Origin: Myxococcota bacterium | GTDB lineage: Bacteria; Myxococcota_A; SURF-8 | Assembly (NCBI GenBank): GCA_965140415.1 | Contig: OZ223209.1 | Location: forward strand, 5,792,001-5,856,000 | Direction: 5' to 3' | Length of the DNA: 64,000 nucleotides | Part shown: one piece after another, positions 24,741 to 43,042 of the stretch | Position numbering within the stretch: position 1 is the first letter of the stretch | Layout: each line of letters begins with the position of its first letter | Position numbers and translations under genes: made by a program | The notes under the pieces: model-generated | What the model was told of the DNA's origin: nothing | The model's input: only the letters and a program-made list of their open reading frames with translations | Database searches by the model: none

Positions 24741-25001
24741 CAAGTGTAATGCATTCGTTGTCTTGGCTTCCGGGTAGTCTGCCTGTCGTATTTCAGGGGC
24801 GTGTCGGCACTCTTGTATGGAACCATACGAGAGTCTTGTTGCTGTTCGTTATGCGTTTCAAGCGCCTCCCTTCCAGAACATGCCCCGGACCCGGACGTTC
24901 ATGGAATGCCGCCCGCGCCCCCATCGAGGATAGAAGAATTGCGCACCGGGGTATGCATCGGTTTCAATTCGCCGTTCGATTCCAGCTATCGGGGTGAATA
25001 C

Positions 25002-27851
25002 ATGAAAGTGTTACAGAAAATCGATCTTCCGGTCATTCTGGAACAATTGGCCGCCCGCTATGGCAAAATATACGGACCGATGCGCCGCCATGGAGGCGAA
25101 TTGCGTTTCGGCCAGTATCTCGGCGAAGAACTGGATCTGGACGGCGGCCTGCCGATGAACTCGCCCAAGGACATCTTTTCCTCTCGACTGGCATGGATCG
25201 AAGCCGCGCTCAAAGAAGGAAGAAGCGAATTTCCAGAACCCGTTGTCTTGTTCGGAATTCGCCCCTGCGATCTGGACGCGCTGGATCGTCTGCAACAACG
25301 ACTGATACCTCAACTAGGGGAAAACGTACTGCTGGGTGAAATGGTTTCTCTGATCGTTGCCAACACCTGTAGCTTTCCGGAATTGAACTGTTTCCACGCC
25401 TCGATGGGTGGCGATCCCAAGCAAGCACCCAAGGCGGATATCCTGTTCTCTTCGATCGGAAACGATCTGTACATCCACGCCCAATCCCAGCGCGGAACGA
25501 AAGCGCTGGAGCAGATCGACAACTGGTTGCGCGAAGCCGACGACAGCGAAAACCAGCAGTTGCACGCCGTTTCCAAACTCGGCTTCCAGACTTTCAGAAA
25601 GCCCGACATTCCGCGTTTACGCCAACAACTTCATGAACGAATCGGAAAGTTGGCGCTATCCGCCGAGTTCGAAGACTGTTTAGCCTGCGGCAACTGCTTG
25701 CAGGTCTGTCCGATGTATCTTCCCATTGCCGATACCTTGACCAAAACAAAGGTTTCGACAACGAAACCCACTTATCAACGCCTGCCTTTCGAGAACATGC
25801 TAATGGCGTTGCAGGACGCCGGGCAACGCATCGACTGCGTCGGCTGCGGGCGATGTTCGAATGTCTGTCCCAGCGGACTGGGAATGCTGGAAGCCATCGA
25901 CAACGTATTGGGACGGGTCCGGCGTGGCGACACCAGTTCGTCGTTTGCGTCAAGCAAGCTACCCGAATGGCTGTTGCCCATCCGGCAGAAACTGGTCACA
26001 CCGGTAAAAGCCTTTTCCGTCATTCGACCCGGCGACACGGTTTTTCTTGCCAGTGGCTGTGCCGAACCGCAGTTTCTGGCGCGCGCCTTTATGGAAAACT
26101 ATCACAAGTTCTTAAACGTACAGGTCATTCATCTGCTTTCGATGGGTGCCGTCACCTTCGACGATCCCCAGCTCACCGACCATTTACGGCTCAACGCCTT
26201 TTTCATCGGCGATCAGTCGCGGCAGGCGGTCGCTAGCGGTCAGGCCGATTACACGCCGGTGTTTCTTTCCGAATTGCCCGAACTTTTTCGCAGTGGACAA
26301 ATCCCGGTGGATGTGGCCCTGATTCAGGTATCCCCGCCGGATCGACACGGCTACTGTACGCTAGGCATTTCGGTGGAAACCATTCAGGCGACGGTAGCCA
26401 GCGCCCATACGGTCATCGCCCAGATCAACCAGCATATGCCGCGCACCTATGGCGATACCGCCATTCACATCGACGATATCGACGAAGTCATCCACGTCGA
26501 TGAGCCGCTGATCGAGTGGAGACCGCCCGCTATCCGTGAACGTACCGCCAAAATCGGGCAGTACATCGCGCAACTGGTGGAAGATGGGGCGACGTTACAG
26601 ATCGGCATCGGCAAGATCGGGCAGGCGCTGTTACCGTTTTTACGCGAACGCAAAAACCTGGGAATTCACACCCAGATCATCACGGACGAAGTCATCAACC
26701 TGATGCAAAAAGGGGTGGTCAATAACCGACTTAAAGGCATCAATGAAGGCCGAACGGTGGCCTCCTTTGCGGTGGGTACCCGGCGCTGTTACGCCGCGCT
26801 GGACAACAACCCCTCCATCGAGTTTCGGGGCATGGATTATGTTTCCGATCCCAACGTGATCAGCAAAAACAACAAAATGACCGCCATCAACTCGGCCTTT
26901 GAAGTCGATCTGGCCGGGCAGGTCTGCGCCGATTCCATGCACCATCAGTTTTACAGCGGCATCGCATCGATGGCCAGCTTCCTGCGCGGCGCGGCGCGCT
27001 CCAAAGACGGCAAGCCGATCATCGCGCTTCCCAGCACGGCTTTAAACGGTGAACACTCGCGCATTCAACCGCTACTGTCTCCCGGCAATCCGGTCGTTGC
27101 GACCCGTGGCGACGTGCACTACATCATCACCGAATACGGCATCGCCTACCTGCACGGAAAATCGCTGCGCGAACGGGCGCTGGCCCTGATTGAAATCGCG
27201 CATCCCAAGTTTCGCGGCTGGCTACTGGAACAGGCCAAGCAGTTGAAATACATTTTCGAAGATCAGGAACTGCCCTCGTTAAGCCAGCACGTATATCCCG
27301 AAGAATGGGAAACAACGGTATTTACCACCACCGGCGAGGAACTTTCCGTGCGCCCGATCAAGGCTTCGGATGAACCGGCCTTACAACGGCTCTATTACTC
27401 GCTTAGCGATCAGGATGTCTTCATGCGTTTCATGGGTAACGACCGCCATTTTCACCATAACCGCATGCAGGCACTGACGGTCGTCAACTACGACACACGC
27501 ATGGCCATCGTCGCTACACGCGGACGCATGGGACGCGAGGAAATCATGGGCATCGCCCGCTACGACATCGACCCCGCCTCCGGCATTGCGGAAGTCGCCT
27601 TTACGATTCGGGACAGCATGCGCAGACAGGGCATCGGTACCCGGTTACTGGAACATCTTACGGTAATCGCCAAAAGCAAGGGAGTGAAAGGGTTCCGCGC
27701 GGAGATCCTTTCCCGCAACCGGGCGATGATGAGCCTGTTCAATACGTCGGGCGCAAGGCCGCATTCTCATGTCGAGGATGGCATGTACACCATGTGGTAT
27801 GCTTTCGATTCGGAATCGGACACCATACAAGAACCAACCCCAACGAAGTGA
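25002..27851 (+). CDS. Fusion: AsrA/FlxC-like [4Fe-4S] domain + acetyl-CoA hydrolase/transferase-like domain (Glu->Gln) + GNAT acetyltransferase
   Basis: LFGIRPCD, CLACGNCLQVCP, CVGCGRCSNVCP; QVSPPDRHG, LQIGIG, GIHTQ, TEYGIA; C-terminal RPI...AEVAF...QGIG GNAT. Likely start is ATG 25002; the ORF extends to 24801. Confidence 0.85.
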   Translation: MKVLQKIDLPVILEQLAARYGKIYGPMRRHGGELRFGQYLGEELDLDGGLPMNSPKDIFSSRLAWIEAALKEGRSEFPEPVVLFGIRPCDLDALDRLQQRLIPQLGENVLLGEMVSLIVANTCSFPELNCFHASMGGDPKQAPKADILFSSIGNDLYIHAQSQRGTKALEQIDNWLREADDSENQQLHAVSKLGFQTFRKPDIPRLRQQLHERIGKLALSAEFEDCLACGNCLQVCPMYLPIADTLTKTKVSTTKPTYQRLPFENMLMALQDAGQRIDCVGCGRCSNVCPSGLGMLEAIDNVLGRVRRGDTSSSFASSKLPEWLLPIRQKLVTPVKAFSVIRPGDTVFLASGCAEPQFLARAFMENYHKFLNVQVIHLLSMGAVTFDDPQLTDHLRLNAFFIGDQSRQAVASGQADYTPVFLSELPELFRSGQIPVDVALIQVSPPDRHGYCTLGISVETIQATVASAHTVIAQINQHMPRTYGDTAIHIDDIDEVIHVDEPLIEWRPPAIRERTAKIGQYIAQLVEDGATLQIGIGKIGQALLPFLRERKNLGIHTQIITDEVINLMQKGVVNNRLKGINEGRTVASFAVGTRRCYAALDNNPSIEFRGMDYVSDPNVISKNNKMTAINSAFEVDLAGQVCADSMHHQFYSGIASMASFLRGAARSKDGKPIIALPSTALNGEHSRIQPLLSPGNPVVATRGDVHYIITEYGIAYLHGKSLRERALALIEIAHPKFRGWLLEQAKQLKYIFEDQELPSLSQHVYPEEWETTVFTTTGEELSVRPIKASDEPALQRLYYSLSDQDVFMRFMGNDRHFHHNRMQALTVVNYDTRMAIVATRGRMGREEIMGIARYDIDPASGIAEVAFTIRDSMRRQGIGTRLLEHLTVIAKSKGVKGFRAEILSRNRAMMSLFNTSGARPHSHVEDGMYTMWYAFDSESDTIQEPTPTK

Positions 27852-33297: not shown

Positions 33298-33492
33298 ATG
33301 TGTGAATCTGCGGCCTATCTGAAAAAAGACGAGAAAGAAGAACTGTTGATGCAGTCGGTAGCCGTGGTACTTCCGACCGGAAAAGACAGCTTCGTTTTGC
33401 GCGGACTACTGGGAGACAGCGTCGAAGTGAAGGGACGCGTCAACGAAATCAACCTGATGTCGAACAAGATTATTTTTGTGCCGACAGACTGA
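33298..33492 (+). CDS. cooT: CooT-family nickel-binding protein
   Basis: MCESAAYL start, 64 aa, L.GLLGD..EVKGRV.EINL...KI pattern; GGGAG RBS; adjacent to cooC. Confidence 0.8.
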   Translation: MCESAAYLKKDEKEELLMQSVAVVLPTGKDSFVLRGLLGDSVEVKGRVNEINLMSNKIIFVPTD

Positions 33493-34252
33493 GAACTTTC
33501 TCGGCGATATCCCGTAAGGAATCCGGCACATCGTCGAGGTTTTCGAAGGGCCGTACGCCCTTGCGGTCGGCCTCGATAAACTCTTCCAGTTCCGGTACGA
33601 AACCCAGAAAATCAAATTCAGGCAGGGTCTCTTTGAGCAGATCGATGTCTTCCTGTCCGCGCACGCGATTTCCCAAAACCAGGAATTGCTTGATGCCGAT
33701 CTCCTGACCGAGCTGGCGGATGCGATGCGCCGCCATACGGCTGCGCGCGCCGGGATTGACCACAACCAGCAGGGCATCCACCGCGTGCGTGGTTGCTCGT
33801 CCCAAATGCTCGACACCCGCTTCCATATCCATCAGCGCGATCTCGTCGCGATACAGCACCACGTTGGTCATCAGCGCCTTCAACATCGCACTTTCAGGGC
33901 ACACACAACCCATGCCGCCACCATGAACCGTTCCCATGACCAACAGCTTAACGCCATCGCGTTCCTTGCTGAAGCGGTCGGGGATATCGTCTACCTTGGG
34001 ATTGAGTGTAAAGAATCCACCCATCGTTCCCTTTTGCGCACCCGTGCGTTCGGCGATCAGATCCGACAGTTCGGCAATCGGCGTGATCGGATCCTCCTCC
34101 GGAATACCCAGCCCCGCCGCCAGATTCGTGACTGGGTCCGCATCGATGGCGATGACCCGCTGTCCACCTTGGGCCAATAGACGCGCCAGAATCGCGGTCA
34201 TGGTCGTTTTGCCAACCCCACCTTTTCCGCCAATGGCCAGTTTCAAACTCAC
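33470..34252 (-). CDS. cooC: CO dehydrogenase/ACS nickel-insertion ATPase (CooC/AcsF)
   Basis: GKGGVGKTT, IDADP, GCVCP, DMEAGVEHLGR; GTG start at 34252 after GGAGG. Confidence 0.92.
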   Translation of the reverse strand: MSLKLAIGGKGGVGKTTMTAILARLLAQGGQRVIAIDADPVTNLAAGLGIPEEDPITPIAELSDLIAERTGAQKGTMGGFFTLNPKVDDIPDRFSKERDGVKLLVMGTVHGGGMGCVCPESAMLKALMTNVVLYRDEIALMDMEAGVEHLGRATTHAVDALLVVVNPGARSRMAAHRIRQLGQEIGIKQFLVLGNRVRGQEDIDLLKETLPEFDFLGFVPELEEFIEADRKGVRPFENLDDVPDSLRDIAEKVLSLSAQK

Positions 34253-34406
34253 GGTATCATCCTCCAGAGTAAATTCAGTAAAAGATCGTAAGGCGAATCC
34301 CGCTCGCATCCGACCGTTCCAGTGGATTAGAGCGGATGACTTCCGATTTTGTTCCCGGATTGATCCGACGAAGCCTCCCATGCCGCATTGCAAGCTGCAT
34401 AGATGA

Positions 34407-34460
34407 GAAAAAGGCGGCGGCGGTCGAACGCAAGAATATCACGTCCGTCACGCCGCCGCC
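34407..34460 (-). terminator. Extended hairpin terminator between acsE and cooC
   Basis: GGCGGCGGCG...CGCCGCCGCC arms followed by TTTTTC on the minus strand. Confidence 0.55.
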
Positions 34461-34523
34461 AATCGAAACAGAAAGGAAAACCACAGTTCGCGACGTATCG
34501 CGAAGTAGCTGGAATTCCTAAGC

Positions 34524-35411
34524 TTACAGCTCCAGCCAGGAATCTGAATAAAGCTGCTGGTTCGTCAGGATCTTCACGGTCTTGACGTAATCCTGCTGCT
34601 TCTTGTCCAGAGATCCCATATCGATGGATTCGCCGTTGTACGCCTTCATGACCAGCGCTTCCAGTTCGGGACGCTGCCCCTTGGCAATAGCGATAATCTC
34701 CTTGTCCAGACCATCCATGATCGCCGAAGTCATGCCGAGGTTTTTCAAGATGATAAGGTAGGTCTGGTTGATGATGTCGCGCAAATGCTCGGGCGAACCA
34801 TTGGACACATTGGACAAACCGCAGGTGCTGTTGCAACCGGGAGCGATCTCACCGATCATGGCGGTGAATTCGGTGCAACTGACAACCTGTTCCTGCTGGG
34901 AGGAAACCGGCACCACGACCGGGTCGAAGAACATGTCTTCAACGGCCAAACCGGCTTCCATGCCGTGATACAACAGTTCGGCGGCCAGTGCGCCACGCTC
35001 GTTGCTGTCACGCGGGATACCGTCGGTCGCATACATCAAAGCCACGAAACGGGCTTTGTATTCCGCTGCCAGCGGAAGCATCTTTTCCATGCGTTCCGGA
35101 ATGGCGGAAATCGAGTTGATCAGCGCCGGACCCGGTGTGGGATCGTAGGCTTTCAACGCAGCTTCCATCGCTTCCATGTTCATGGTGTCCAGACTCAAAG
35201 GAATGCTGACGGCGCTCTGCACCGTTTTGACAATCCATTCCATCAGTTCCGGGCCGCCCTTGCGTGCGAAACCGACGTTCAAGTCCAGAATGTCCGCGCC
35301 ATTGGCTTCCAGCGCTTTGGCCATCTTGATGATAGGCTCGGCGTTGCGTTCCTTCATCGCCGGTCCGAGTGATTTGGACATCACATTAATATTCTCGGCT
35401 ATGACGATCAT
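34524..35411 (-). CDS. acsE: Methyl-THF:corrinoid protein methyltransferase
   Basis: IAENIN, LDLNVG, LSLDT, INSIS, FFDP, GLSNVSNG (pterin-binding fold); lies in the acs operon. Confidence 0.92.
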   Translation of the reverse strand: MIVIAENINVMSKSLGPAMKERNAEPIIKMAKALEANGADILDLNVGFARKGGPELMEWIVKTVQSAVSIPLSLDTMNMEAMEAALKAYDPTPGPALINSISAIPERMEKMLPLAAEYKARFVALMYATDGIPRDSNERGALAAELLYHGMEAGLAVEDMFFDPVVVPVSSQQEQVVSCTEFTAMIGEIAPGCNSTCGLSNVSNGSPEHLRDIINQTYLIILKNLGMTSAIMDGLDKEIIAIAKGQRPELEALVMKAYNGESIDMGSLDKKQQDYVKTVKILTNQQLYSDSWLEL

Positions 35412-35464: not shown

Positions 35465-36820
35465 TCAACTCGCTTTTGCGAAATTCTGCTTCAAGAACGC
35501 CGGAATGTGCGCACTTTCACGCGGTCCGATCATCACATTCCAGTCCGAGCCGACTTCCTCTTCCACATCGCCACTGATAATGGCGGCGTAACCGGGTAAA
35601 ACCAGAGTCTTGGATTTGACCTTGTCGGCGATGCCGCACTTCTTCACCAGCGCACCGACGGTATCGCCAACGAACTTGCCGGCTGCCCAGGCGGTGAGAA
35701 CGGAGAGACCGTCGGTATCAAGTACCAACAACCAGGTCGGCACACGGCTCGCCTCGATCTCGCCGGAAACCACGAAGTAGGTCAGCGAGAAGTTCGCCGT
35801 CACCAGCACCGGAGAATCGGCGCCGGGACCGTTGATCTCGTAGATGCCTTCGTCGGTCTTCATGGGTCGTTGCGGATCGGTGTAGATATTCAACCGCTGC
35901 AACAACAACGGGAACAGGCTCTCGCCCTGAATGTCGGAAAGTACGATCAATCCTGCATACTTGGAGACGAGGATTCCCGCATAGGCCGTTTCCAGCATCG
36001 GGTCGTCGGTCATCTCGCAGGGGAAGGTGATCGTTGGGAAACCCAGCGGACGGAAAGTCTCGTTGATCGCCAGACGCCGAATGGCGATGTGGTCGAACAA
36101 CTGCTTTTTCAGCGAGCGGCTACCCGGATCGAGCACCAGATCTTTCAGACCAAGGTCGATCAGTTTCTGTGACAGATCGCTGACCTCTTCCAGGCTTTCA
36201 CCACGCACCGCCAGCGGACAGGCGTTGTCTTTGGCCAGATCGGCCATCTCTTCGTAATTGTCCGCATCCGCCGCATACAACAACGGCTTGCGATCCTTAA
36301 CGGACTCGATGACCTCTCCGAGCACGTCTTCGTCGGCCATCAGGATCATTCCCATCTGGGTGCTGTCCGCAACCAGTTTCACCAGCGCGCCGTATTTTTT
36401 GGCGTCGTCGGTGTTGCATTTGAGCGCTACGGCGTTGGCTTTGAGCATCAAGCCGACACGCTCGTATTTAAGCGTATTCAACCGTTCGATTTTGGCTTTT
36501 ACCTGCTTGACGTCTTCATCGTCGGCAACCAGAACGCAAAATCCGGGTTGATTGAAGAAGGTTTTTTCGTGGCGGTACAGTACCGTTTCACCGCCCACTG
36601 CGAATTTTTCCTCGCCCTCACCGACTTCAACCGTCCTAATGGGCGGTGCCGATTCGGCGTCCAAGGTGGCTTTCGCTTCATCTGAAACGTGCGGACAGGC
36701 GGAAAGTTCCGCCTTGCCCGCCGCCAGATTCATCGCGAAGGCCAGACACGTGGGAACTCCGCAGTCCCCACAGTTGGTTTTGGGTAGGAGCTTAAAAATC
36801 TGGATTCCAGAAAGTCCCAT
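35465..36820 (-). CDS. acsC: Corrinoid Fe-S protein large subunit
   Basis: LPKTNCGDCGVPTCLAFA...CP, GGETVLYRHEKTF, NIYTDPQ, GLSVLTAWAAGKF. Confidence 0.95.
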   Translation of the reverse strand: MGLSGIQIFKLLPKTNCGDCGVPTCLAFAMNLAAGKAELSACPHVSDEAKATLDAESAPPIRTVEVGEGEEKFAVGGETVLYRHEKTFFNQPGFCVLVADDEDVKQVKAKIERLNTLKYERVGLMLKANAVALKCNTDDAKKYGALVKLVADSTQMGMILMADEDVLGEVIESVKDRKPLLYAADADNYEEMADLAKDNACPLAVRGESLEEVSDLSQKLIDLGLKDLVLDPGSRSLKKQLFDHIAIRRLAINETFRPLGFPTITFPCEMTDDPMLETAYAGILVSKYAGLIVLSDIQGESLFPLLLQRLNIYTDPQRPMKTDEGIYEINGPGADSPVLVTANFSLTYFVVSGEIEASRVPTWLLVLDTDGLSVLTAWAAGKFVGDTVGALVKKCGIADKVKSKTLVLPGYAAIISGDVEEEVGSDWNVMIGPRESAHIPAFLKQNFAKAS

Positions 36821-36845: not shown

Positions 36846-39050
36846 TTACATCATCGGGTCCATCGACAATGCCGGATGACCAACTTTTTCCATGTGGGCA
36901 TACACTTCTTCTTCGGTCGTTCCGACGGTTTCGTCGGCGATCTTGTCGAGAAGTCCATTGATACCCAACTCACCAGACACCTTAGCAAACCGCTCTGCAA
37001 TTTCCTCTTTGAGCCGTTTGGGCATCCACGCGATGCGCTGGATACCGCCTTCGGCGCTGATGAATTTCTTGCTGGTAATGTAGAGCTTACTGTGACCGAC
37101 GAAGCCCGGCGTAATCGCACCGCCGCCGACCGAACCGGCCAGGGTGGTGAATTTCATGCCGGAAGGCGTCATGCCGCGATAGTCGCGGTCGACGATCATT
37201 ACACCGTTGCAGGTCGGCATGAATGCCGCAATGCATTCGAAGCAACCACAGCTGGTCATGGGCTGATCCATGATGCTGTAGGCGTTGTACTGACCCACGT
37301 TTCCTCGGCTGGCTTTCTGCACGAACTCATTGACACCCGACCATTGGCCCTTCTGTTCGTCGATGGTGTCGCCTTTTTCGATCGGTTGGTTGGGACCGGT
37401 CGGATTGATTTCGTTACTGGCCTTGCAGTCGAGCCAGCTATACGCACCGCACAGACCGGCGCGTTCCGGGGTCACCACGCAAACATGTGTGGGAGCGAAG
37501 GACTGGCACAGGGTGCAGGAGTAGAAGGTGTCGATGGCTTCATCGGTCATACCTTCCACGCGCTCGTCGCGAATCTTGTAAGCGGCGCGGGCCTTGGCCA
37601 CCATTTCGGTCACCTTGGCTTCATCGGTGAAGATGGTAACCTGCACCTTGTCCAGAATGTTGCCGAAGTCCTGGTGGAACTTGGCGTGCAGAATACGTCC
37701 GATATCCGCCAGCGCAAAGCCCTTCTCGATCGCACCCTTGGCGATACGTACCCAGGCGATATCGCGTTGGCCGATGTGCATCGCACCCTGCGCGAAGTTG
37801 ATGAGATGGTGAATCTGACGTTCGAGAATCGGTTCGAAGTCTTCCTGCATGGCGCGACCGGCGACTTCGACGTAAATCGCCAGTGGCGTTTTGCTGCCCT
37901 CTCCCAGTTCCTTCAGATCGGGACCGACGACTTCGACGTTGCCGTCCTGGACTTCGTCCATCTCGCGCATCTGAACCAGCTCGACCGCTTGTGTGCGACC
38001 GCCACCGGCTTCGTAGTAGATGTCCTCGCCGCGTACGCGCTCGCCTTCGAAGGCGGGACCGTAAGAGACCGGGACCGGAACTTTGGTGATGTTGACTTTT
38101 AAGCCGCGAACTTCAATCGCCTTGCCAACAATATCCTCATAAGGAATGTTGCTGACGACGTGCTCGTAAGTGCAAACGCCGGTGGGCAGAATCTCGGGAA
38201 TCGGGGTATCCGCGATAACCGGGAAACCGTAGTTGACGATGCCCAGACCGTTGGCATACCACTCGTCGGTCACGGTACCCATTGTCAACGCAAAAGCGAA
38301 CACGCGGTCTTTGTTGTAAATCAGGATACGGCGGAAGTCGCCAGGCTCGATACCACCGAAACTCATAGCGGCGCGTGTGGCGAAACCGACGGCGAAAACG
38401 GCGGCGCTGGTATCGGGACCGAAGGAAACCAGGCGGGTTCCCCAGCCGACCTGCACACCCGCTTCGACCAGCTGATCGCTGAAGGTTTTGCCTTCATGCG
38501 AACCAGCCATAAAGACATACAGGTTTTTCTCTTGCAATTCCAACGCGATCTTGGCCGCGATCTCCGAGTTGGGAGCCGCACCCAGAATGGCCGCAAAGCC
38601 AGGAGCGGTACCATCGACGAACTCGACACCACGCTTACGGAGGATGATGTCGTTGGCCGCGCCCAACCAGATGTTGTCGGCGGTGACGTCTTCGTCCGTA
38701 AGGTAGAAGTTCGGTTCGTTCAAGTAGCGAACACCCTCGCTCAGTTCCTCGGCGAAGAGGGTCGCCATACCGGCGTCCAGGGCCGGGCCGAGATAGGGCA
38801 GATGATATTTTTCATGAACCATGGGCGGAAGCAGCGACTTGCAGCGGTCCAGGACCGGCTTCATGTCTTCCAGCTTCTCCACCTTATGGCCAAGAATTCC
38901 GTAAATGATCGGTAGATAATAACCGGTGTTGGTAAAATTCACCTCGGCGTTGCCGCCGTGGGTGTCCATGGCCTCTTTCCATTGTTGTTCGGCCCTGGCG
39001 ACGATTTTATGCGCACCGCGAATACCGGCGGAAGCGATAATTTTTGACAT
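36846..39050 (-). CDS. acsB: Acetyl-CoA synthase (A-cluster subunit)
   Basis: NTGYYLP, FYSCTLCQSFAPTHVC, GLCGAYSWLD, PMTSCGCFEC. Confidence 0.96.
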   Translation of the reverse strand: MSKIIASAGIRGAHKIVARAEQQWKEAMDTHGGNAEVNFTNTGYYLPIIYGILGHKVEKLEDMKPVLDRCKSLLPPMVHEKYHLPYLGPALDAGMATLFAEELSEGVRYLNEPNFYLTDEDVTADNIWLGAANDIILRKRGVEFVDGTAPGFAAILGAAPNSEIAAKIALELQEKNLYVFMAGSHEGKTFSDQLVEAGVQVGWGTRLVSFGPDTSAAVFAVGFATRAAMSFGGIEPGDFRRILIYNKDRVFAFALTMGTVTDEWYANGLGIVNYGFPVIADTPIPEILPTGVCTYEHVVSNIPYEDIVGKAIEVRGLKVNITKVPVPVSYGPAFEGERVRGEDIYYEAGGGRTQAVELVQMREMDEVQDGNVEVVGPDLKELGEGSKTPLAIYVEVAGRAMQEDFEPILERQIHHLINFAQGAMHIGQRDIAWVRIAKGAIEKGFALADIGRILHAKFHQDFGNILDKVQVTIFTDEAKVTEMVAKARAAYKIRDERVEGMTDEAIDTFYSCTLCQSFAPTHVCVVTPERAGLCGAYSWLDCKASNEINPTGPNQPIEKGDTIDEQKGQWSGVNEFVQKASRGNVGQYNAYSIMDQPMTSCGCFECIAAFMPTCNGVMIVDRDYRGMTPSGMKFTTLAGSVGGGAITPGFVGHSKLYITSKKFISAEGGIQRIAWMPKRLKEEIAERFAKVSGELGINGLLDKIADETVGTTEEEVYAHMEKVGHPALSMDPMM

Positions 39051-39068: not shown

Positions 39069-41246
39069 TTAATCCAAGGCCTGGCGGTCGGCCATATCGG
39101 CCAGCTTGCGTTCGCGCTTCTTGTCGATGCCGAGCGCTTTACGCTTCTTGTCGATATGGGCGATCATCTTGTGAGCCGCCGAGATGGGGTCTTCGTCGTA
39201 GTCCCACATTCCACCAGTGATACTCTCGTACTTGTTGAAGAGCAGATCGGTGAACTCGGGAGAACCCAACGTCGGGAAGGTGGTGGAGAACATGGTATAG
39301 ACACCACTGGCCACGAAGTAATGGCCGATGGAGATGGCTTTTTCGCTCATCCACTCGGGGGCCGCACCGGCTGCGGGAAGATCGCTGATGTCGTCGCCCA
39401 GTCCACCTTCTTTGACGACTGTGGAAGCCGCGATCAGAATGCGGGAGTTGTCCACGCAAGAACCCATGTGCAGGACCGGCGGAATACCGACCGTCTCGCA
39501 GACTTCGGCCAGACCCGGACCGGCGTGCTGTGCCGCCGCTTCGGGAACCAGCAGACCTTCTTTGGCCAGCGCCACCGCGCCGCAACCGGTCATCAGGACG
39601 ATAACATCGTTCTTGACCAGTTCCTTGACCATTTGAATGTGCCAGCTATCGTGCGGCGTCTTCGGATTGGTGCAACCGACCACACCGGCGATACCGCGAA
39701 TCTTTCCGTTGATGATGTTGTCGTTCAACGGACGGTAGGAGGCGCGGAAGAGGCCACCCAGCAGGTAGTTGATGGTTTCATGCGAGAAACCGGCCACCAG
39801 CTTGTGGGTTTCTTCCGGAATATGCACCACCTCAGGGCGATTCTCGAAATTATCGATGGCTTGCTTGACCACTTCGCGCGCCGTGTTGATGGCATCGTGC
39901 TCGTGGAATTCGATATGCTCCGCTCCCGGCATCTTGGCGCGCGGGCTGGTGGTAATGATCTTGGTATGGTAGTGCCCGGCCACCGAAGGCAGCGCACACA
40001 TAATGCACTGAACATCGACGACCATTGCTTCGACTGCGCCGGTCACGATGGCCAGTTCCTGTTGCAGGAAGTCACCCGCAACGTTTACACCATGGCGCAT
40101 CAGAATTTCATTGGCCGTGCAGCAAATGCCGCCCAGGTTAATGCCCTTGGCGCCCTTGCTCTCCGCATATTTCAGCAGTTCCGGATCTTGCGACGCCGCA
40201 ACGATCTGCTCTGAAAGCAGTGGCTCATGACCATGGATGATAATGTTGACCTGGTCTTTCTTCAGAATTCCCAGATTGGCTTCGCCCATAATCGGGACCG
40301 GTGTGCCGAACATAATGTCCTGCAACTCCGTACCGATCATCGAGCCACCCCAACCGTCACCGATGGCGGCTCGGGAACCCTGGATCATCAGGTTTTCCAT
40401 TTCCTGATCCACACCCATGTGGGTACGGTGCATAATTTCCACGATTTCGCGATCGATACCGCGTGGTGCCATACCCAGATCGCGCCACAATTGCTGGCGC
40501 TTCAAGGGAGCTTTGCGCAGGAATTTGAGTTCACCCTCTTGTTGTCCGAATTCGGCAAGAGCCGTTTCACCAACTTCAATCGCAATCTCTTCTTTGGAGC
40601 GTCCTTCGATTTCGATATCGAAATCCAACGCGACCTGGAGAAGTTTCTGCTCATCTTTGATCTCATAACCGGGGGCTTCACCCTTGGCAGCCAGGATAAG
40701 GGTTTCTGCTACGGCACGACCATGGTCCGAGTGTGCTGCTGCACCGCCCGCAATCATGCGCACGAAGTTACGTGCAGCGATGGTACTTGCGGTGGCGCCG
40801 CAAACACCCACGCTCTCCGGCTCACCCGGCTTGGTCTTCTTGATGCGGCAGGGGCCCATGACGCAGATCTTGCAGCAGGTGCCGTCGATACCCCAGTTGC
40901 ATTGCGGCTGTTGTGCGGCCAGACGATCCCAGACAAGCTGTACGCCGTCATCTTCGGCCACCTGAATGGTCTTCAATGCGGTGGGGTCCACACTCTTGGG
41001 TTGGTCGCCAACCTTTTTAGCCTTGGCTCTGGTCGGCGTATCGAACTGCTTGGCGGCAACAGGAGCGGCAGCAGCAGCCTTGGGAGCAGGTTTTGCGGCG
41101 ACAGCCGGAGCGGCTCCACCCACCTGCGCACGCAACTGCGCTAGCGTTTGTTGCTGTTCGCTAATCAATTTTTTCAGCTCGGCAAGTTCCGATCCCTTAC
41201 CTGCCGATTTTCCTTTATCTGAACCGACGATAATTTCGACTTTCAT
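39069..41246 (-). CDS. cooS: Anaerobic Ni-CO dehydrogenase catalytic subunit with an N-terminal extension
   Basis: CCKICVMGPC, GVCGAT, AAHSDH, HGHEP, GICCTANE, DVQC, VGC, GCG, GSCVDN, SEKA. Confidence 0.96.
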   Translation of the reverse strand: MKVEIIVGSDKGKSAGKGSELAELKKLISEQQQTLAQLRAQVGGAAPAVAAKPAPKAAAAAPVAAKQFDTPTRAKAKKVGDQPKSVDPTALKTIQVAEDDGVQLVWDRLAAQQPQCNWGIDGTCCKICVMGPCRIKKTKPGEPESVGVCGATASTIAARNFVRMIAGGAAAHSDHGRAVAETLILAAKGEAPGYEIKDEQKLLQVALDFDIEIEGRSKEEIAIEVGETALAEFGQQEGELKFLRKAPLKRQQLWRDLGMAPRGIDREIVEIMHRTHMGVDQEMENLMIQGSRAAIGDGWGGSMIGTELQDIMFGTPVPIMGEANLGILKKDQVNIIIHGHEPLLSEQIVAASQDPELLKYAESKGAKGINLGGICCTANEILMRHGVNVAGDFLQQELAIVTGAVEAMVVDVQCIMCALPSVAGHYHTKIITTSPRAKMPGAEHIEFHEHDAINTAREVVKQAIDNFENRPEVVHIPEETHKLVAGFSHETINYLLGGLFRASYRPLNDNIINGKIRGIAGVVGCTNPKTPHDSWHIQMVKELVKNDVIVLMTGCGAVALAKEGLLVPEAAAQHAGPGLAEVCETVGIPPVLHMGSCVDNSRILIAASTVVKEGGLGDDISDLPAAGAAPEWMSEKAISIGHYFVASGVYTMFSTTFPTLGSPEFTDLLFNKYESITGGMWDYDEDPISAAHKMIAHIDKKRKALGIDKKRERKLADMADRQALD

Positions 41247-42772
41247 GATTGTCTCCTTTGAATGAGGTCTCGCAGCATGTTGATTTCTTCTTGTTGTGTT
41301 TTTATCAGCTCGCGAAGGGCGGCCAGTTCGGATTCCGAGGCCGTCTCTTCCTCATCGGCCCCAAGCGTGATGACGATTCGCACGGGACCGGACTCTCCGT
41401 CCGTATTGATGGTTTTGGAAACTGCAACAGGTTCGCTGGCAACTTCCACTGCCGGCACTTCCACTTTGGCAACAGGAGCCGGTGTAGGTGCAGGCGCTGG
41501 TGCAGCAGCAGCGGCAGCAGCAGCTTTTGCTTCCGCATCCGCCTTGGCCTTGGCTTCTGCATCCGCTTTGGCTTTTGCATCGGCAGCGGCTTTGGCCTTG
41601 GCTTCTGCATCCGCTTTGGCTTTTGCATCGGCAGCGGCTTTGGCCTTGGCAGCAGCATCGGCTTTTGCTTTCGCTTCGGCAGCGGCTTTGGCCTTGGCAT
41701 CCGCTTCCGCCTTGGCTTTCGCTTCCGCCGCAGCTTTTGCTTTGCCGTCGTCTGCCGGTTTGGCGGCTTTCTTCGGCTTGTCTTTCTTGACCTTGGCCTT
41801 CTTCGGCTTCGCCTCGACCTTCGGCGCACGCTCTTCGAGCAGATCCGCCATCAACTGGCGCACCAGTTCAACGGTCTTGGGATGCCGCAGCACCAGCACG
41901 TCGCCTCCAGCCACCAGGCAAGATGCGGCGGTGATGGTTTCCATCAATACACCACGCTTGGAAGTATCGCCCAGTTCAGGCATTTCCTTGCTGGAGATTT
42001 TTGCTTCTTTCGTTTTCCAGACTTCACGTCCGAGATTGCAGTACAGCGGGTATTGCAGTTTCTCATCTTCCTGCACCAGAGCCGCCAAACGAGCGCGCTC
42101 CATAACCGAATAGCTGTACTCCATACCGTAACCCAAACCTCCGACGGTCGGGTCCACGATGATATTGGTATCCGGGACACCCAGGTTGCCCAGCAGAATG
42201 TTCAACTGCTTGGCAAGGTTGATGTCGATCGGCGAAGACGCGACCGCGATATGGCCGTAGGCCAGCGTGCCTGCGCCCAATTGCTTGTAATCGTCTTCTT
42301 CTACCGGACCAACCAACAGCTTGGTATCTGTAACCGCTTCGCATACAGCGCGCAGTACCTCGATGTCCTTGGCGTGACTGGCGGTACCCCAGACGCAGAC
42401 GGGAACGTCTACGGCTTCGAGTACGCTCTTGACTACTTTCACAGCATGATCCGCGCCCAGATCCTTCCCGTTGGGATCGGTGCCGATCAACTCGAGATGA
42501 ATCATGTCCGCGCCGTATTTGTCTTGAGCCATTTTGGCCCACTTGGCAGGATCCTTAAGCGCGTCGCCCCAGACGGCTACCAGTTCGGATGCCAGATCTT
42601 CCGGTTCGATGTCGTTAACCGCAATGGCGATTTTCGGAGTGTTGGGCATTTCGCCTTCGAAAGTATAGAACGGCATGGTGCTTTCACCGCCGATCACGAA
42701 ACCGCGCTCTCCCGGGATCTGGATTTGCTTGATTTTACCAGGATACTTTACTTGGGGGATATCTACGGCCAT
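41243..42772 (-). CDS. acsD: Corrinoid Fe-S protein small subunit with a long C-terminal Lys/Ala extension
   Basis: GGESTMPFY.FEG, SPIDINLAKQLN, DPTVGGLGYGMEY, LRHP; about 190 extra C-terminal residues. Confidence 0.93.
   Translation of the reverse strand: MAVDIPQVKYPGKIKQIQIPGERGFVIGGESTMPFYTFEGEMPNTPKIAIAVNDIEPEDLASELVAVWGDALKDPAKWAKMAQDKYGADMIHLELIGTDPNGKDLGADHAVKVVKSVLEAVDVPVCVWGTASHAKDIEVLRAVCEAVTDTKLLVGPVEEDDYKQLGAGTLAYGHIAVASSPIDINLAKQLNILLGNLGVPDTNIIVDPTVGGLGYGMEYSYSVMERARLAALVQEDEKLQYPLYCNLGREVWKTKEAKISSKEMPELGDTSKRGVLMETITAASCLVAGGDVLVLRHPKTVELVRQLMADLLEERAPKVEAKPKKAKVKKDKPKKAAKPADDGKAKAAAEAKAKAEADAKAKAAAEAKAKADAAAKAKAAADAKAKADAEAKAKAAADAKAKADAEAKAKADAEAKAAAAAAAAPAPAPTPAPVAKVEVPAVEVASEPVAVSKTINTDGESGPVRIVITLGADEEETASESELAALRELIKTQQEEINMLRDLIQRRQS
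41505..41745 (-). repeat. Degenerate 24/48-bp coding repeats (KAKAAAEA/KAKADAEA)
   Basis: Repeated GCTTTGGCCTTGGCTTCTGCATCC-like units within acsD. Confidence 0.85.
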
Positions 42773-42829: not shown

Positions 42830-43042
42830 TCAGGCCGGTGTTTTGCGCTTCTCGCTTCCGAATCCCTCCTCTACATAATAGTATCGGAGACCGGTCTTGA
42901 TGTACTTGAGCATCTCTTCGCGATCACGAGTCTTGGCGCGCCAACGATCGGCATCCTCCGGAATGCCTTCTTCGTAGGTGGCGTCTAAGACTTCCACCTC
43001 CTCGCCATCGAACTTCTTTTTCTTCACCTTGGTTTCCGTCAT
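42830..43042 (-). CDS. Small hypothetical protein leading the acs operon
   Basis: 70 aa, AGAGGAG RBS, codirectional with acsD and 57 nt upstream of it. Confidence 0.75.
   Translation of the reverse strand: MTETKVKKKKFDGEEVEVLDATYEEGIPEDADRWRAKTRDREEMLKYIKTGLRYYYVEEGFGSEKRKTPA

Follow-up and report, generated by a model that had tools for sequence, protein, structure and literature searches.

CFeSP and CODH/ACS of the model acetogens are distinct proteins in transient contact, and in methanogens both belong to the roughly 2-MDa ACDS complex. How ACDS is organised was only recently explained by a coiled coil together with disordered termini: in Methanosarcina acetivorans, CoFeSP is reported to oligomerise via a coiled coil within the disordered N-terminal part of CdhD, with disordered termini of CdhA and CdhC as proposed tethers (bioRxiv 10.64898/2026.07.07.736967). 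The subunit reported to dock on ACS in C. autoethanogenum is the small subunit of CoFeSP (bioRxiv 10.1101/2024.08.05.606187).

Here, we describe an acsD-cooS junction from a Myxococcota bacterium at which the C-terminus of AcsD (the tail) and the N-terminus of CooS (the head) carry similar peptides. This junction and archaeal ACDS share pathway and subunit family, a CoFeSP small subunit with a Leu-zipper helix in a non-globular terminal region, and a proposed role in which CODH, ACS and CoFeSP are kept together yet mobile. Unlike archaeal CdhD, AcsD here starts directly with its core (NF003376 from residue 1) and bears its helix C-terminally, at residues 480-508; moreover, a homologous copy is present on the CODH subunit, the spacer is a long predicted helix, and ACS is of the bacterial AcsB type.

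Adjacent genes whose upstream product carries a C-terminal element and whose downstream product carries an N-terminal one are also the setting of the docking domains of modular PKS and NRPS. There, such short elements, built from helices, an added beta-strand or both, link successive enzymes without a covalent bond. The two docking elements of those systems are generally not mutually homologous, unlike the AcsD tail and CooS head; furthermore, neither peptide matches a Pfam docking domain (E<=10), and the enzymes are unrelated. The peptides that target cargo to bacterial microcompartments (BMCs) and encapsulins likewise combine a terminal amphipathic helix with a low-complexity linker to the enzyme, but the module described here adds a strand and a four-heptad helix, and shell genes gave 0 matches in the genome of this bacterium, G000 (PF00936, PF04454).

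The acsD-cooS operon

The window, that is, the whole 64,000-nt stretch of DNA analysed, carries on its minus strand the gene order orf70-acsD-cooS-acsB-acsC-acsE-cooC. The CFeSP small subunit is encoded by acsD (41243..42772, minus strand), whose 509-aa product consists of a core at about residues 1-315 and a 195-aa C-terminal extension. The core is matched by Pfam PF03599 CdhD over residues 22-302 (E 2.3e-38; 132.4 bits against a cut-off of 24.8), by NCBIfam NF003376 over 1-312 (373.5 bits against a cut-off of 280) and by WLP_AcsD over 7-311. The acsD TGA overlaps the ATG (as ATGA) of cooS/acsA (39069..41246, minus strand), the gene for the Ni-CODH catalytic subunit, which has 725 aa and an N-terminal extension of about 85 aa and is matched by Pfam PF03063 over 123-687 (E 3.6e-174, 580.6 bits) and by TIGR01702 over 86-707 (658 bits against a cut-off of 478). 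The original prediction had placed both terminal motifs outside the catalytic folds, and so they are: CdhD covers only AcsD 22-302, and TIGR01702 begins at CooS residue 86.

Next come acsB, for acetyl-CoA synthase (36846..39050, minus strand; 734 aa; PF18537, PF03598 and PF19436 cover 21-734), and acsC, for the CFeSP large subunit (35465..36820, minus strand; 451 aa; PF04060 over 12-44, PF03599 over 64-442), neither of which has, by Pfam coverage, an extension comparable to those of AcsD and CooS. An acsE-like methyltransferase gene (34524-35411, minus strand) and a gene for a CooC/AcsF-type P-loop ATPase (33470-34393, minus strand), assigned on the joint basis of Pfam PF00809 and PF01656, round off the operon (33470..35411).

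Where read contigs from three runs of a single study fall on the window, outside the repeat region 41473-41734, they are identical to it, and one contig of 8.8 kb spans the junction of acsD and cooS without a single difference. As the window itself may derive from these runs, they are not independent support. The sole RNA run, on 41735-41900, differs at 14 positions, comes from a relative and is silent on expression here.

Architecture of the two extensions

Both peptides are encoded on the minus strand as quoted in the original prediction, except that the true AcsD C-terminus lies five residues beyond the quoted, otherwise correct end (…DLIQRRQS*). Behind the AcsD core, AF2 predicts a single helix at residues 39-122 of a 209-aa AcsD piece (pLDDT 87-91), corresponding to an 84-residue, Ala/Lys/Glu/Asp-rich alpha-helix at AcsD 339-422 (41507..41758, minus strand), which is flanked by Lys/Pro-rich and Ala/Pro-rich stretches and encoded by a 48-nt tandem repeat (TRF period 48, 4.6 copies, 41523-41744). 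If helical, this segment is predicted to form a rigid spacer of roughly 12-13 nm. AcsD 315-425 matches NCBIfam tolA_full below the model's cut-off (E 1.1e-11) and resembles TolA domain II and other single long Ala-Lys-Glu-rich spacer helices both in composition and as one long predicted helix; AcsD itself is not a TolA protein, the resemblance being one of low-complexity composition and the helicity being predicted.

The Ala/Pro-rich stretch at AcsD 423-449 (41426..41506, minus strand) is predicted to be unstructured (AF2 pLDDT <50 over most of piece residues 124-146) and leads into a predicted beta-hairpin (AVSKTI … VRIVIT) at AcsD 450-469 (41366..41425, minus strand; AF2 strands at piece 150-155 and 164-169), the second strand of which is the homologue of the CooS N-terminal strand in alignments A4 and A5. 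This predicted hairpin could be extended by an added N-terminal strand. It is followed by an acidic loop at AcsD 470-479 (41336..41365, minus strand), with a net charge of -6 here and -2 to -7 in four other genomes, and by an amphipathic heptad helix at AcsD 480-505 (41258..41335, minus strand) with a conserved L-Q-L at d positions, which AF2 places at piece residues 180-208 (AcsD 480-508, pLDDT 76-86). The last four AcsD codons (RRQS; 41246..41257, minus strand) overlap the cooS Shine-Dalgarno (SD) sequence AGGAG at 41253-41257 and probably lie outside the functional module; in G004, AcsD terminates ahead of the SD, without RRxS. An ESM Atlas look-up with AcsD 445-509 returned no usable match.

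The head module occupies CooS 1-42 (41121..41246, minus strand) and opens with the strand-like MKVEIIVG, which a Lys/Gly/Ser loop connects to a heptad helix from residue 18 or 19 to 42. AF2 modelling of CooS 1-140 from a 5-row alignment gave a mean pLDDT of 46, with helix 18-42, at about 70, as the only usable part; residues 1-14 are not confidently folded alone, and the N-terminal strand is not predicted. The Ala/Pro/Lys-rich linker at CooS 43-85 (40992..41120, minus strand) is predicted to be disordered (AF2 pLDDT <50 for 45-88), and is retained across genomes with varying length and composition (alignment A8). Of the flexible Ala/Pro/Lys linkers first proposed for both proteins, the one in CooS is thus predicted unstructured by AF2, but its AcsD counterpart is mainly one predicted rigid helix (339-422, pLDDT about 90). 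AGGAG sits 6-8 nt upstream of the ATG or GTG start of cooS in 5/5 genomes that bear the module pair, and public gene calls have CooS begin with this Met as well.

Homology of tail and head

The resemblance first noticed between the two peptides is real: BLASTP aligns them with 15/39 identities and 28/39 positives (E 4e-7), and their Smith-Waterman score of 66 was attained by 0/20,000 shuffled heads (mean 22.4, sd 4.4, max 51). Moreover, hhalign of 5 tails against 5 heads returned a probability of 96.9% (E 1.4e-10, 41 columns). The heptad periodicity likewise holds up, as the 10-sequence alignment has only three columns that are invariant (L25, L39) or nearly so (Q32), and these lie exactly 7 apart, and a positions are hydrophobic in 10/10 sequences. 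On sequence evidence, one strand-loop-coiled-coil module, about 45 aa long, is present twice, as AcsD tail and as CooS head, and a local duplication at the gene junction would fit both this homology and the adjacency.

Charge complementarity and heterotypic preference, both part of the original prediction, fared less well. The AcsD loop is acidic as claimed, but the supposedly basic CooS loop is not, head loops being about neutral (net loop charges in five genomes: tail -6, -2, -7, -7, -3; head +1, -1, 0, 0, -1). The e/g positions, read by hand, suit tail-tail, head-head and tail-head pairs alike, so nothing in the helices would enforce hetero-association.

A Pfam scan of both peptides (E<=10) returned only COMP (0.0097) and SlyX (0.07), both below cut-offs, and searching the PDB with the module profile returned nothing beyond weak matches to generic coiled coils, such as GCN4 chimeras, the best full-sequence E value being 5e-4 for an engineered spike HR1 construct. 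In the searched text of the literature on bacterial AcsD/CooS, no description of such modules was found.

Distribution and selection

Related loci were collected with the AcsD protein as query. The module pair is present in 5/10 genomes of this Myxococcota order (G000, G001, G004, G006 and G009), and G002 and G008 have acsD-cooS with neither module. The original prediction had suggested examining co-occurrence across genomes, and the outcome is both or neither, with 0/7 acsD-cooS genomes carrying just one module. This co-occurrence represents one or two evolutionary events and is hence statistically weak. The best AcsD tree puts G002 inside the pair-bearing clade, which would imply co-loss; co-loss in G002 is not accepted as an established event, however, as a tree that unites the five pair-bearers in a single clade is not rejected by the AU test (p 0.093).

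A profile search of the five pair-bearing genomes yielded exactly two strong matches in each, the next best having E 0.12. Among 5.8 billion proteins there were 8 matches, 4 of them located at residue 1 of proteins or fragments with PF03063 and the other 4 at the C-terminus of those with PF03599; among 1.84 billion representatives, 17 matches reached E<=0.001, and the one that alone spans the whole profile is a CooS fragment. In these 5.8 and 1.84 billion proteins, the module is confined to the AcsD tail and the CooS head within this clade. A small ORF upstream of the operon is also found where the pair is absent, and no conserved extra gene is specific to pair-bearing operons.

Five genomes from 4 genera have retained the head, with identities of 21-46% between genera and 87% within one genus. 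Between G006 and G009, 11 synonymous versus 5 non-synonymous codon differences separate the tails and 13 versus 6 the heads, over 44 codons each. Judged by their codons, both modules are under purifying selection and both are translated.

Furthermore, loop length and sequence vary in step between the tail and the head of a genome. For example, the G004 tail is 39% identical to its own head, and either is at most 29% identical to any orthologue. Same-genome tail-head pairing is the top one of 24 permutations when 4 genomes are used and 2-3 of 120 when 5 are, in tests based on just 4-5 related genomes. Codons shared at identical residues show no enrichment (same-genome 25/63 versus cross-genome 50/133), and tail-head similarity without a shared-codon excess points to selection for matching, not to recent gene conversion; this comparison is of low power, and conversion of older date may have played a part.

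A putative tether and its alternatives

We consider it somewhat probable that a mixed coiled-coil bundle of tails and heads tethers CFeSP to CODH/ACS, as a bacterial analogue of the archaeal ACDS scaffold. AcsD tail and CooS head would associate, most simply as a mixed bundle with two heads from the CODH homodimer and tails from as many as two CFeSP molecules, so that CFeSP would be permanently held at CODH/ACS through the paired modules. The tether would consist, on the AcsD side, of the predicted 84-residue helix plus the Ala/Pro stretch and, on the CooS side, of the disordered linker of about 45 residues; given the slack in these arms, a tethered CFeSP could still swing between AcsE and the ACS A-cluster. 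Because they lie at the junction of translationally coupled genes, the modules could pair as soon as they are made, and the product would be a bacterial ACDS-like assembly held by terminal modules. What we infer is that tail and head bind, in which ratio they do so, how far the arms reach and that pairing occurs during translation. A 1:1 complex prediction with tail alignment A5 and head alignment A6 scored 0.18 against a mark of 0.32, which counts neither for nor against binding.

Homology of the modules, and e/g positions that by hand reading permit homo-pairs, would equally suit self-association without cross-binding, in which heads zip the two N-termini of a CODH dimer and tails di- or oligomerise CFeSP. 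The two heads of one CODH dimer should lie near each other and could simply pair together. Archaeal CoFeSP, too, is reported to self-oligomerise via the CdhD coiled coil (bioRxiv 10.64898/2026.07.07.736967). Nevertheless, we regard self-association alone as unlikely: two independent functions would leave unexplained both the joint presence or absence of the modules and the within-genome tracking of tail and head in loop length and sequence, and homologous coiled coils with the same L-Q-L core and a/d pattern would be expected to cross-pair anyway.

Likeness of tail and head within each genome is also what one receptor fitting both would produce, and BMC cargo is addressed by terminal amphipathic helices on linkers; both modules might thus be the same address tag for a third partner (scaffold, membrane complex or compartment) with no direct tail-head contact. 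This seems quite unlikely, given that G000 (a single contig of 5.98 Mb, CheckM completeness 93.7%) has no BMC shell (PF00936) or encapsulin (PF04454) gene, where control genomes matched, that none of the five genomes encodes a third module-bearing protein, and that pair-bearing operons share no conserved extra gene of their own. Most improbable is a head that is a non-functional by-product of junction duplication, or of a mis-called start with the real CooS beginning downstream: the modules do adjoin, making slippage or duplication plausible as an origin, but retention of the head in five genomes of four genera, its mostly synonymous changes between G006 and G009 (13 vs 6), the strong SD ahead of the start in 5/5 genomes and the retained CooS linker all speak against it.

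In this small set of anaerobic Myxococcota, related strand-plus-helix modules on long arms most likely clip two neighbouring carbon-fixation enzymes together, and matching terminal modules on AcsD and CooS would represent a convergent, genetically simple route to ACDS-like tethering. We see as possible, though rather doubtful, a more elaborate, independent ACDS-like supercomplex, in which two heads and two tails would form a four-helix bundle with a small shared beta-sheet on the CODH two-fold axis, two CFeSP would sit on rigid helical arms of about 13 nm so that each ACS site has its own captive methyl carrier, assembly would proceed co-translationally from the last and first 45 codons of the coupled genes, and Thermodesulfobacteriota would have solved the problem a second time, independently, with their own AcsD extension. 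Were that supercomplex real, permanent CFeSP tethering would be a recurrent theme beyond model acetogens. The two 45-aa peptides offer a compact test system for whether methyl-carrier tethering matters for flux through the Wood-Ljungdahl carbonyl branch, and the modules could double as small natural docking tags in enzyme assemblies.

Other long AcsD proteins

The long AcsD of Thermodesulfobacteriota has a comparable layout, with a core followed by about 200 aa with EAKAK-type repeats and a conserved terminal peptide, and the same gene order acsD-cooS. The terminal peptide there is a different one (…GPKEMKVAExQLSPVDKLLAQINRVNKR), and the neighbouring CooS is without a homologous copy. Homology between the Myxococcota and Thermodesulfobacteriota tails is ruled out, as hhalign of the same 5 tails against this unrelated family gave a probability of 0.3% and no score. 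In the AcsD tree, the Thermodesulfobacteriota cores form a separate clade from the Myxococcota ones.

Genomic context and the paired terminal modules

The acsD-cooS gene pair belongs to a Wood-Ljungdahl carbonyl-branch operon on the minus strand, in a source genome assembled as a single 5.98 Mb contig from an uncultured Myxococcota lineage. Read along that strand, a 70-aa ORF (42830-43042) lies directly upstream of acsD (41243-42772, 509 aa), followed by cooS/acsA (39069-41246, 725 aa), acsB (36846-39050), acsC (35465-36820), a gene for an acsE-like pterin-binding methyltransferase (34524-35411) and one for a CooC-type ATPase (33470-34393), with fhs and folD divergently transcribed relative to the acsD-cooS operon. 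Family models span only residues 1-312 of AcsD, the small subunit of CFeSP, and residues 86-707 of CooS, the CODH subunit, and thus leave a C-terminal extension of ~195 aa on the former and an N-terminal extension of ~85 aa on the latter; no comparable extension was seen on AcsB or AcsC by Pfam coverage. AcsD ends in …GPVRIVITLGADEEETASESELAALRELIKTQQEEINMLRDLIQRRQS (the tail), and CooS begins with MKVEIIVGSDKGKSAGKGSELAELKKLISEQQQTLAQLRAQVGG… (the head). Both had been quoted correctly in the original prediction, save for AcsD's five last residues, which were missing.

The shared motif proposed for these ends was recovered by BLASTP, with 15 identities and 28 positives over 39 residues (E 4e-7). 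The tail-head local alignment scored 66, against a mean of 22.4 (sd 4.4, maximum 51) for 20,000 composition-preserving shuffles of the head, and a profile of five tails matched a profile of five heads with 96.9% probability (E 1.4e-10, 41 columns). As a control for coiled-coil likeness, the same five tails compared with the tail conserved in a different AcsD family gave a probability of 0.3%. The resemblance of tail and head exceeds chance. Heptad periodicity, likewise predicted, is evident in the 10-sequence alignment, in which L25, Q32 and L39 are the sole invariant or near-invariant columns, spaced by exactly seven, and the a positions between them are hydrophobic in every row. Judged from this alignment, the module helix comprises four heptads with a conserved buried glutamine.

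Architecture and translation of the extensions

AlphaFold2 modeling of AcsD 301-509 from a single sequence (mean pLDDT 72.6) contradicted the flexible linker originally assigned to AcsD: residues 339-422 form one continuous predicted helix (pLDDT about 90), and the Ala/Pro stretch 423-449 is predicted to be unstructured. It is followed by a predicted beta-hairpin (450-455 and 464-469, VRIVIT), an acidic loop and a predicted helix (480-508). In the other four tails, an alternating hydrophobic stretch can be seen by eye ~10 residues ahead of the conserved strand. For CooS 1-140 (five rows, mean pLDDT 46), only helix 18-42 was predicted (pLDDT about 70), with 45-88 unstructured. Of the charge complementarity suggested for the loops, the acidic half holds for AcsD (-6, -2, -7, -7, -3), whereas the CooS loops are not basic (+1, -1, 0, 0, -1); the tail loop is more acidic than the head loop in each of the five genomes.

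A 48-nt tandem repeat (41523-41744; 4.6 copies as assembled, 86% matches, with 41473-41734 skipped as repeat in the read comparison) codes for the long predicted helix of AcsD, which is rich in Ala, Lys, Glu and Asp. The helix resembles TolA domain II in composition, with tolA_full matching below cut-off at E 1.1e-11. Among NCBIfam subfamily models, NF003377 (432 positions) covers AcsD 1-413 and so takes in ~100 residues of the repeat region; it scores 516.6, just under its cut-off of 527. A long-form delta subunit is thus already represented in the NCBI models, its extension given no stated meaning. In G009, a genome of the same order, a frameshift in the equivalent repeat region splits AcsD, possibly through an assembly error.

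The acsD TGA and cooS ATG overlap as ATGA. An AGGAG lies within the last AcsD codons (41253-41257), and the same sequence stands 6-8 nt before the cooS start in all five pair-bearing genomes, the start codon being ATG in G000 (the window's genome) and G004 and GTG in G001, G006 and G009. In public annotations, too, CooS begins at this residue. Since AcsD of G004 terminates ahead of the Shine-Dalgarno sequence and lacks the RRxS ending, RRxS in the other four is a translated Shine-Dalgarno sequence and no part of the module. The RR-x-S end in the window (41246-41257, minus strand; AGG AGA) is hence a dual-use stretch, not a protein motif.

Distribution

A profile search of the 10 species genomes of the order returned two adjacent module matches each in G000, G001, G006 and G009, while the diverged pair of G004, overlooked by the first profiles, was recognised by inspecting the locus. 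G002 and G008 carry acsD then cooS with neither extension, and in G003, G005 and G007 (79-95% complete) acsD was not found with the query used. The co-occurrence anticipated by the original prediction was therefore observed among the acsD-bearing genomes, with both modules in 5/7, neither in 2/7 and a single module in none. In each positive genome the profile hit exactly two places (next best match E 0.12), and the window's own genome holds no module outside the AcsD tail and CooS head. The module was not found in 30 more genomes of the phylum, of which just one (G012) has acsD. In this basal relative, gene order differs, a short acsD being followed by a ferredoxin-like gene with Cys-rich 4Fe-4S motifs and not by cooS.

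Among 1.84 billion representative proteins, a profile search gave 17 matches at E<=0.001. Seven were inspected: one, a frameshifted CooS fragment near-identical to that of the window, covers the whole profile, and the other six, repeat or coiled-coil proteins, are unrelated; the remaining 10 cover parts of the helix only. When 5.8 billion proteins were searched by word index, with 8000 candidates scored, eight matches emerged: four begin at the first residue of a PF03063 protein or fragment, and four lie at the C-terminal end of a PF03599 protein or fragment. Genome and database searches thus place the module on AcsD and CooS only, indicating a lineage-specific invention. Within the sequences searched, only a few uncultured species carry it.

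Evolution of the pair

Tails of different genera share 42-51% identity (G004 left aside) and tail and head 22-37%, except for 42% within G001; as a rule, a tail is more similar to other tails than to heads, which makes the duplication an old one. Tail and head of one genome nevertheless agree in features that vary among genomes. Both modules have a long loop in G000 and G001 and a loop four residues shorter in G006 and G009, and local sequence is matched within genomes (SELA, SSDV; LP.S…KLTE in G004). In G004, tail and head share 39% identity, whereas neither exceeds 29% with any orthologue. Summed same-genome similarity ranks first of 24 permutations with four genomes, one per genus, and second to third of 120 with five. 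Where residues are identical, the same codon is used no more often within genomes (25/63) than between them (50/133), so recent gene conversion is not the obvious cause. Co-evolution of tail and head is the simpler reading of this within-genome similarity in a small sample.

In an AcsD-core tree of 32 rows (three broken or partial loci, L049, L050 and L053, excluded), Myxococcota AcsD forms one clade with the short G012 and G008 proteins basal and G002 nested among the pair-bearers, which, if the tree is right, implies joint loss of both modules. An alternative uniting the five pair-bearers, a group named after the tree was seen, was not rejected by the AU test (p 0.093). The both-or-neither pattern represents one or two evolutionary events only.

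A putative tether between CFeSP and CODH

We lean towards a putative co-assembly of tail and head that tethers CFeSP to CODH/ACS, joining the small subunit of the one to the CODH subunit of the other; the docking originally envisaged is plausible and partly supported, with binding itself the putative step. In the CODH homodimer, the two N-termini are located close to the two-fold axis and the D-cluster. In our hand reading of the helices (a = 3, 10, 17, 24; d = 6, 13, 20), g-to-e' pairs appear alike favorable in tail-tail, head-head and tail-head combinations, and g positions 9 and 23 often carry hydrophobic residues, as seen in bundles with three or more helices. Because the CODH N-termini are near the axis and the helices are without hetero-specific features, a mixed bundle is favored over a strict 1:1 heterodimer. 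Such a bundle would contain two heads and one or two tails, and the head's N-terminal strand could extend the tail hairpin. For Clostridium autoethanogenum, a preprint has the D-cluster lying on the C2 axis and the CFeSP small subunit docking on ACS domains A1 and A3 (bioRxiv 10.1101/2024.08.05.606187). The arm, roughly 12-13 nm long if its ~84 residues are helical, together with two unstructured stretches would let CFeSP still get to both AcsE and the ACS A-cluster, and immediate pairing may be favored because the modules are encoded where two translationally coupled genes meet.

Self-association as the sole role of both modules, which tail-tail and head-head pairing would allow, seems unlikely to us. 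Somewhat less likely still is a shared third partner addressed by both modules, given that neither BMC nor encapsulin shell genes were found in the window's genome and that no third module-bearing protein exists in the five positive genomes. A non-functional remnant is very improbable; between the congeneric G006 and G009, the tail differs by 11 synonymous and 5 non-synonymous codons of 44, and the head by 13 and 6 of 44. A small share of the probability falls to none of these readings.

The putative tether resembles, in its way of working, the docking-domain pairs of PKS/NRPS systems, although the AcsD/CooS modules have no docking-domain family match. The nearest functional precedent is the archaeal ACDS supercomplex, which the Myxococcota pair may resemble in operation without being a member. 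A 2026 preprint on ACDS shows that CoFeSP oligomerises via the disordered N-terminus of its small subunit CdhD, which contains a Leu-zipper coiled coil, and puts forward disordered termini of the CdhA and CdhC subunits as tethers (bioRxiv 10.64898/2026.07.07.736967). In contrast to CdhD, the AcsD helix is C-terminal; Myxococcota further differ in a homologous module copy on CODH and an ACS of the AcsB type. The literature searched, supplementary material aside, yielded no description of tail or head modules on bacterial AcsD or CooS. The AcsD/CooS pair is a new case of a known kind, namely coiled-coil modules for docking or oligomerisation carried on linkers at protein termini, and it bears clearly on the organisation of CFeSP and CODH/ACS.

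Other AcsD extensions and neighboring ORFs

Thirteen AcsD genes from Thermodesulfobacteriota or 'delta proteobacterium' MAGs (loci L035-L037, L039, L042-L045, L047, L048 and L051-L053; e.g. L037:2878-3057) carry an independent C-terminal extension of ~200 aa; 12 are complete (471-521 aa) and one is partial. An EAKAK-type repeat region precedes a strongly conserved terminus, …GPKEMKVAExQLSPVDKLLAQINRVNKR (mean column identity 79%), for which homology to the Myxococcota tail was ruled out (profile comparison probability 0.3%). The adjacent CooS begins with a conserved ~17-aa Lys/Glu-rich stretch (…ETLKVVEKEKKKIKPE…), missing from short Spirochaetota forms.

The 70-aa ORF (…YYYVEEGFGSEKRKTPA) matches neither Pfam nor NCBIfam models. 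By tblastn, it precedes acsD in 23 of the loci compared, spanning the window's Myxococcota order, G012, L049 and all 12 Spirochaetota loci, and was undetected in the Thermodesulfobacteriota long-AcsD loci; it occurs both with and without the tail/head pair. Close to the acetyl-CoA pathway genes, a 1016-aa ORF on the plus strand (24801-27851) is an unusual fusion of 4Fe-4S dicluster, acetyl-CoA hydrolase/transferase N- and C-terminal, and C-terminal GNAT acetyltransferase domains.
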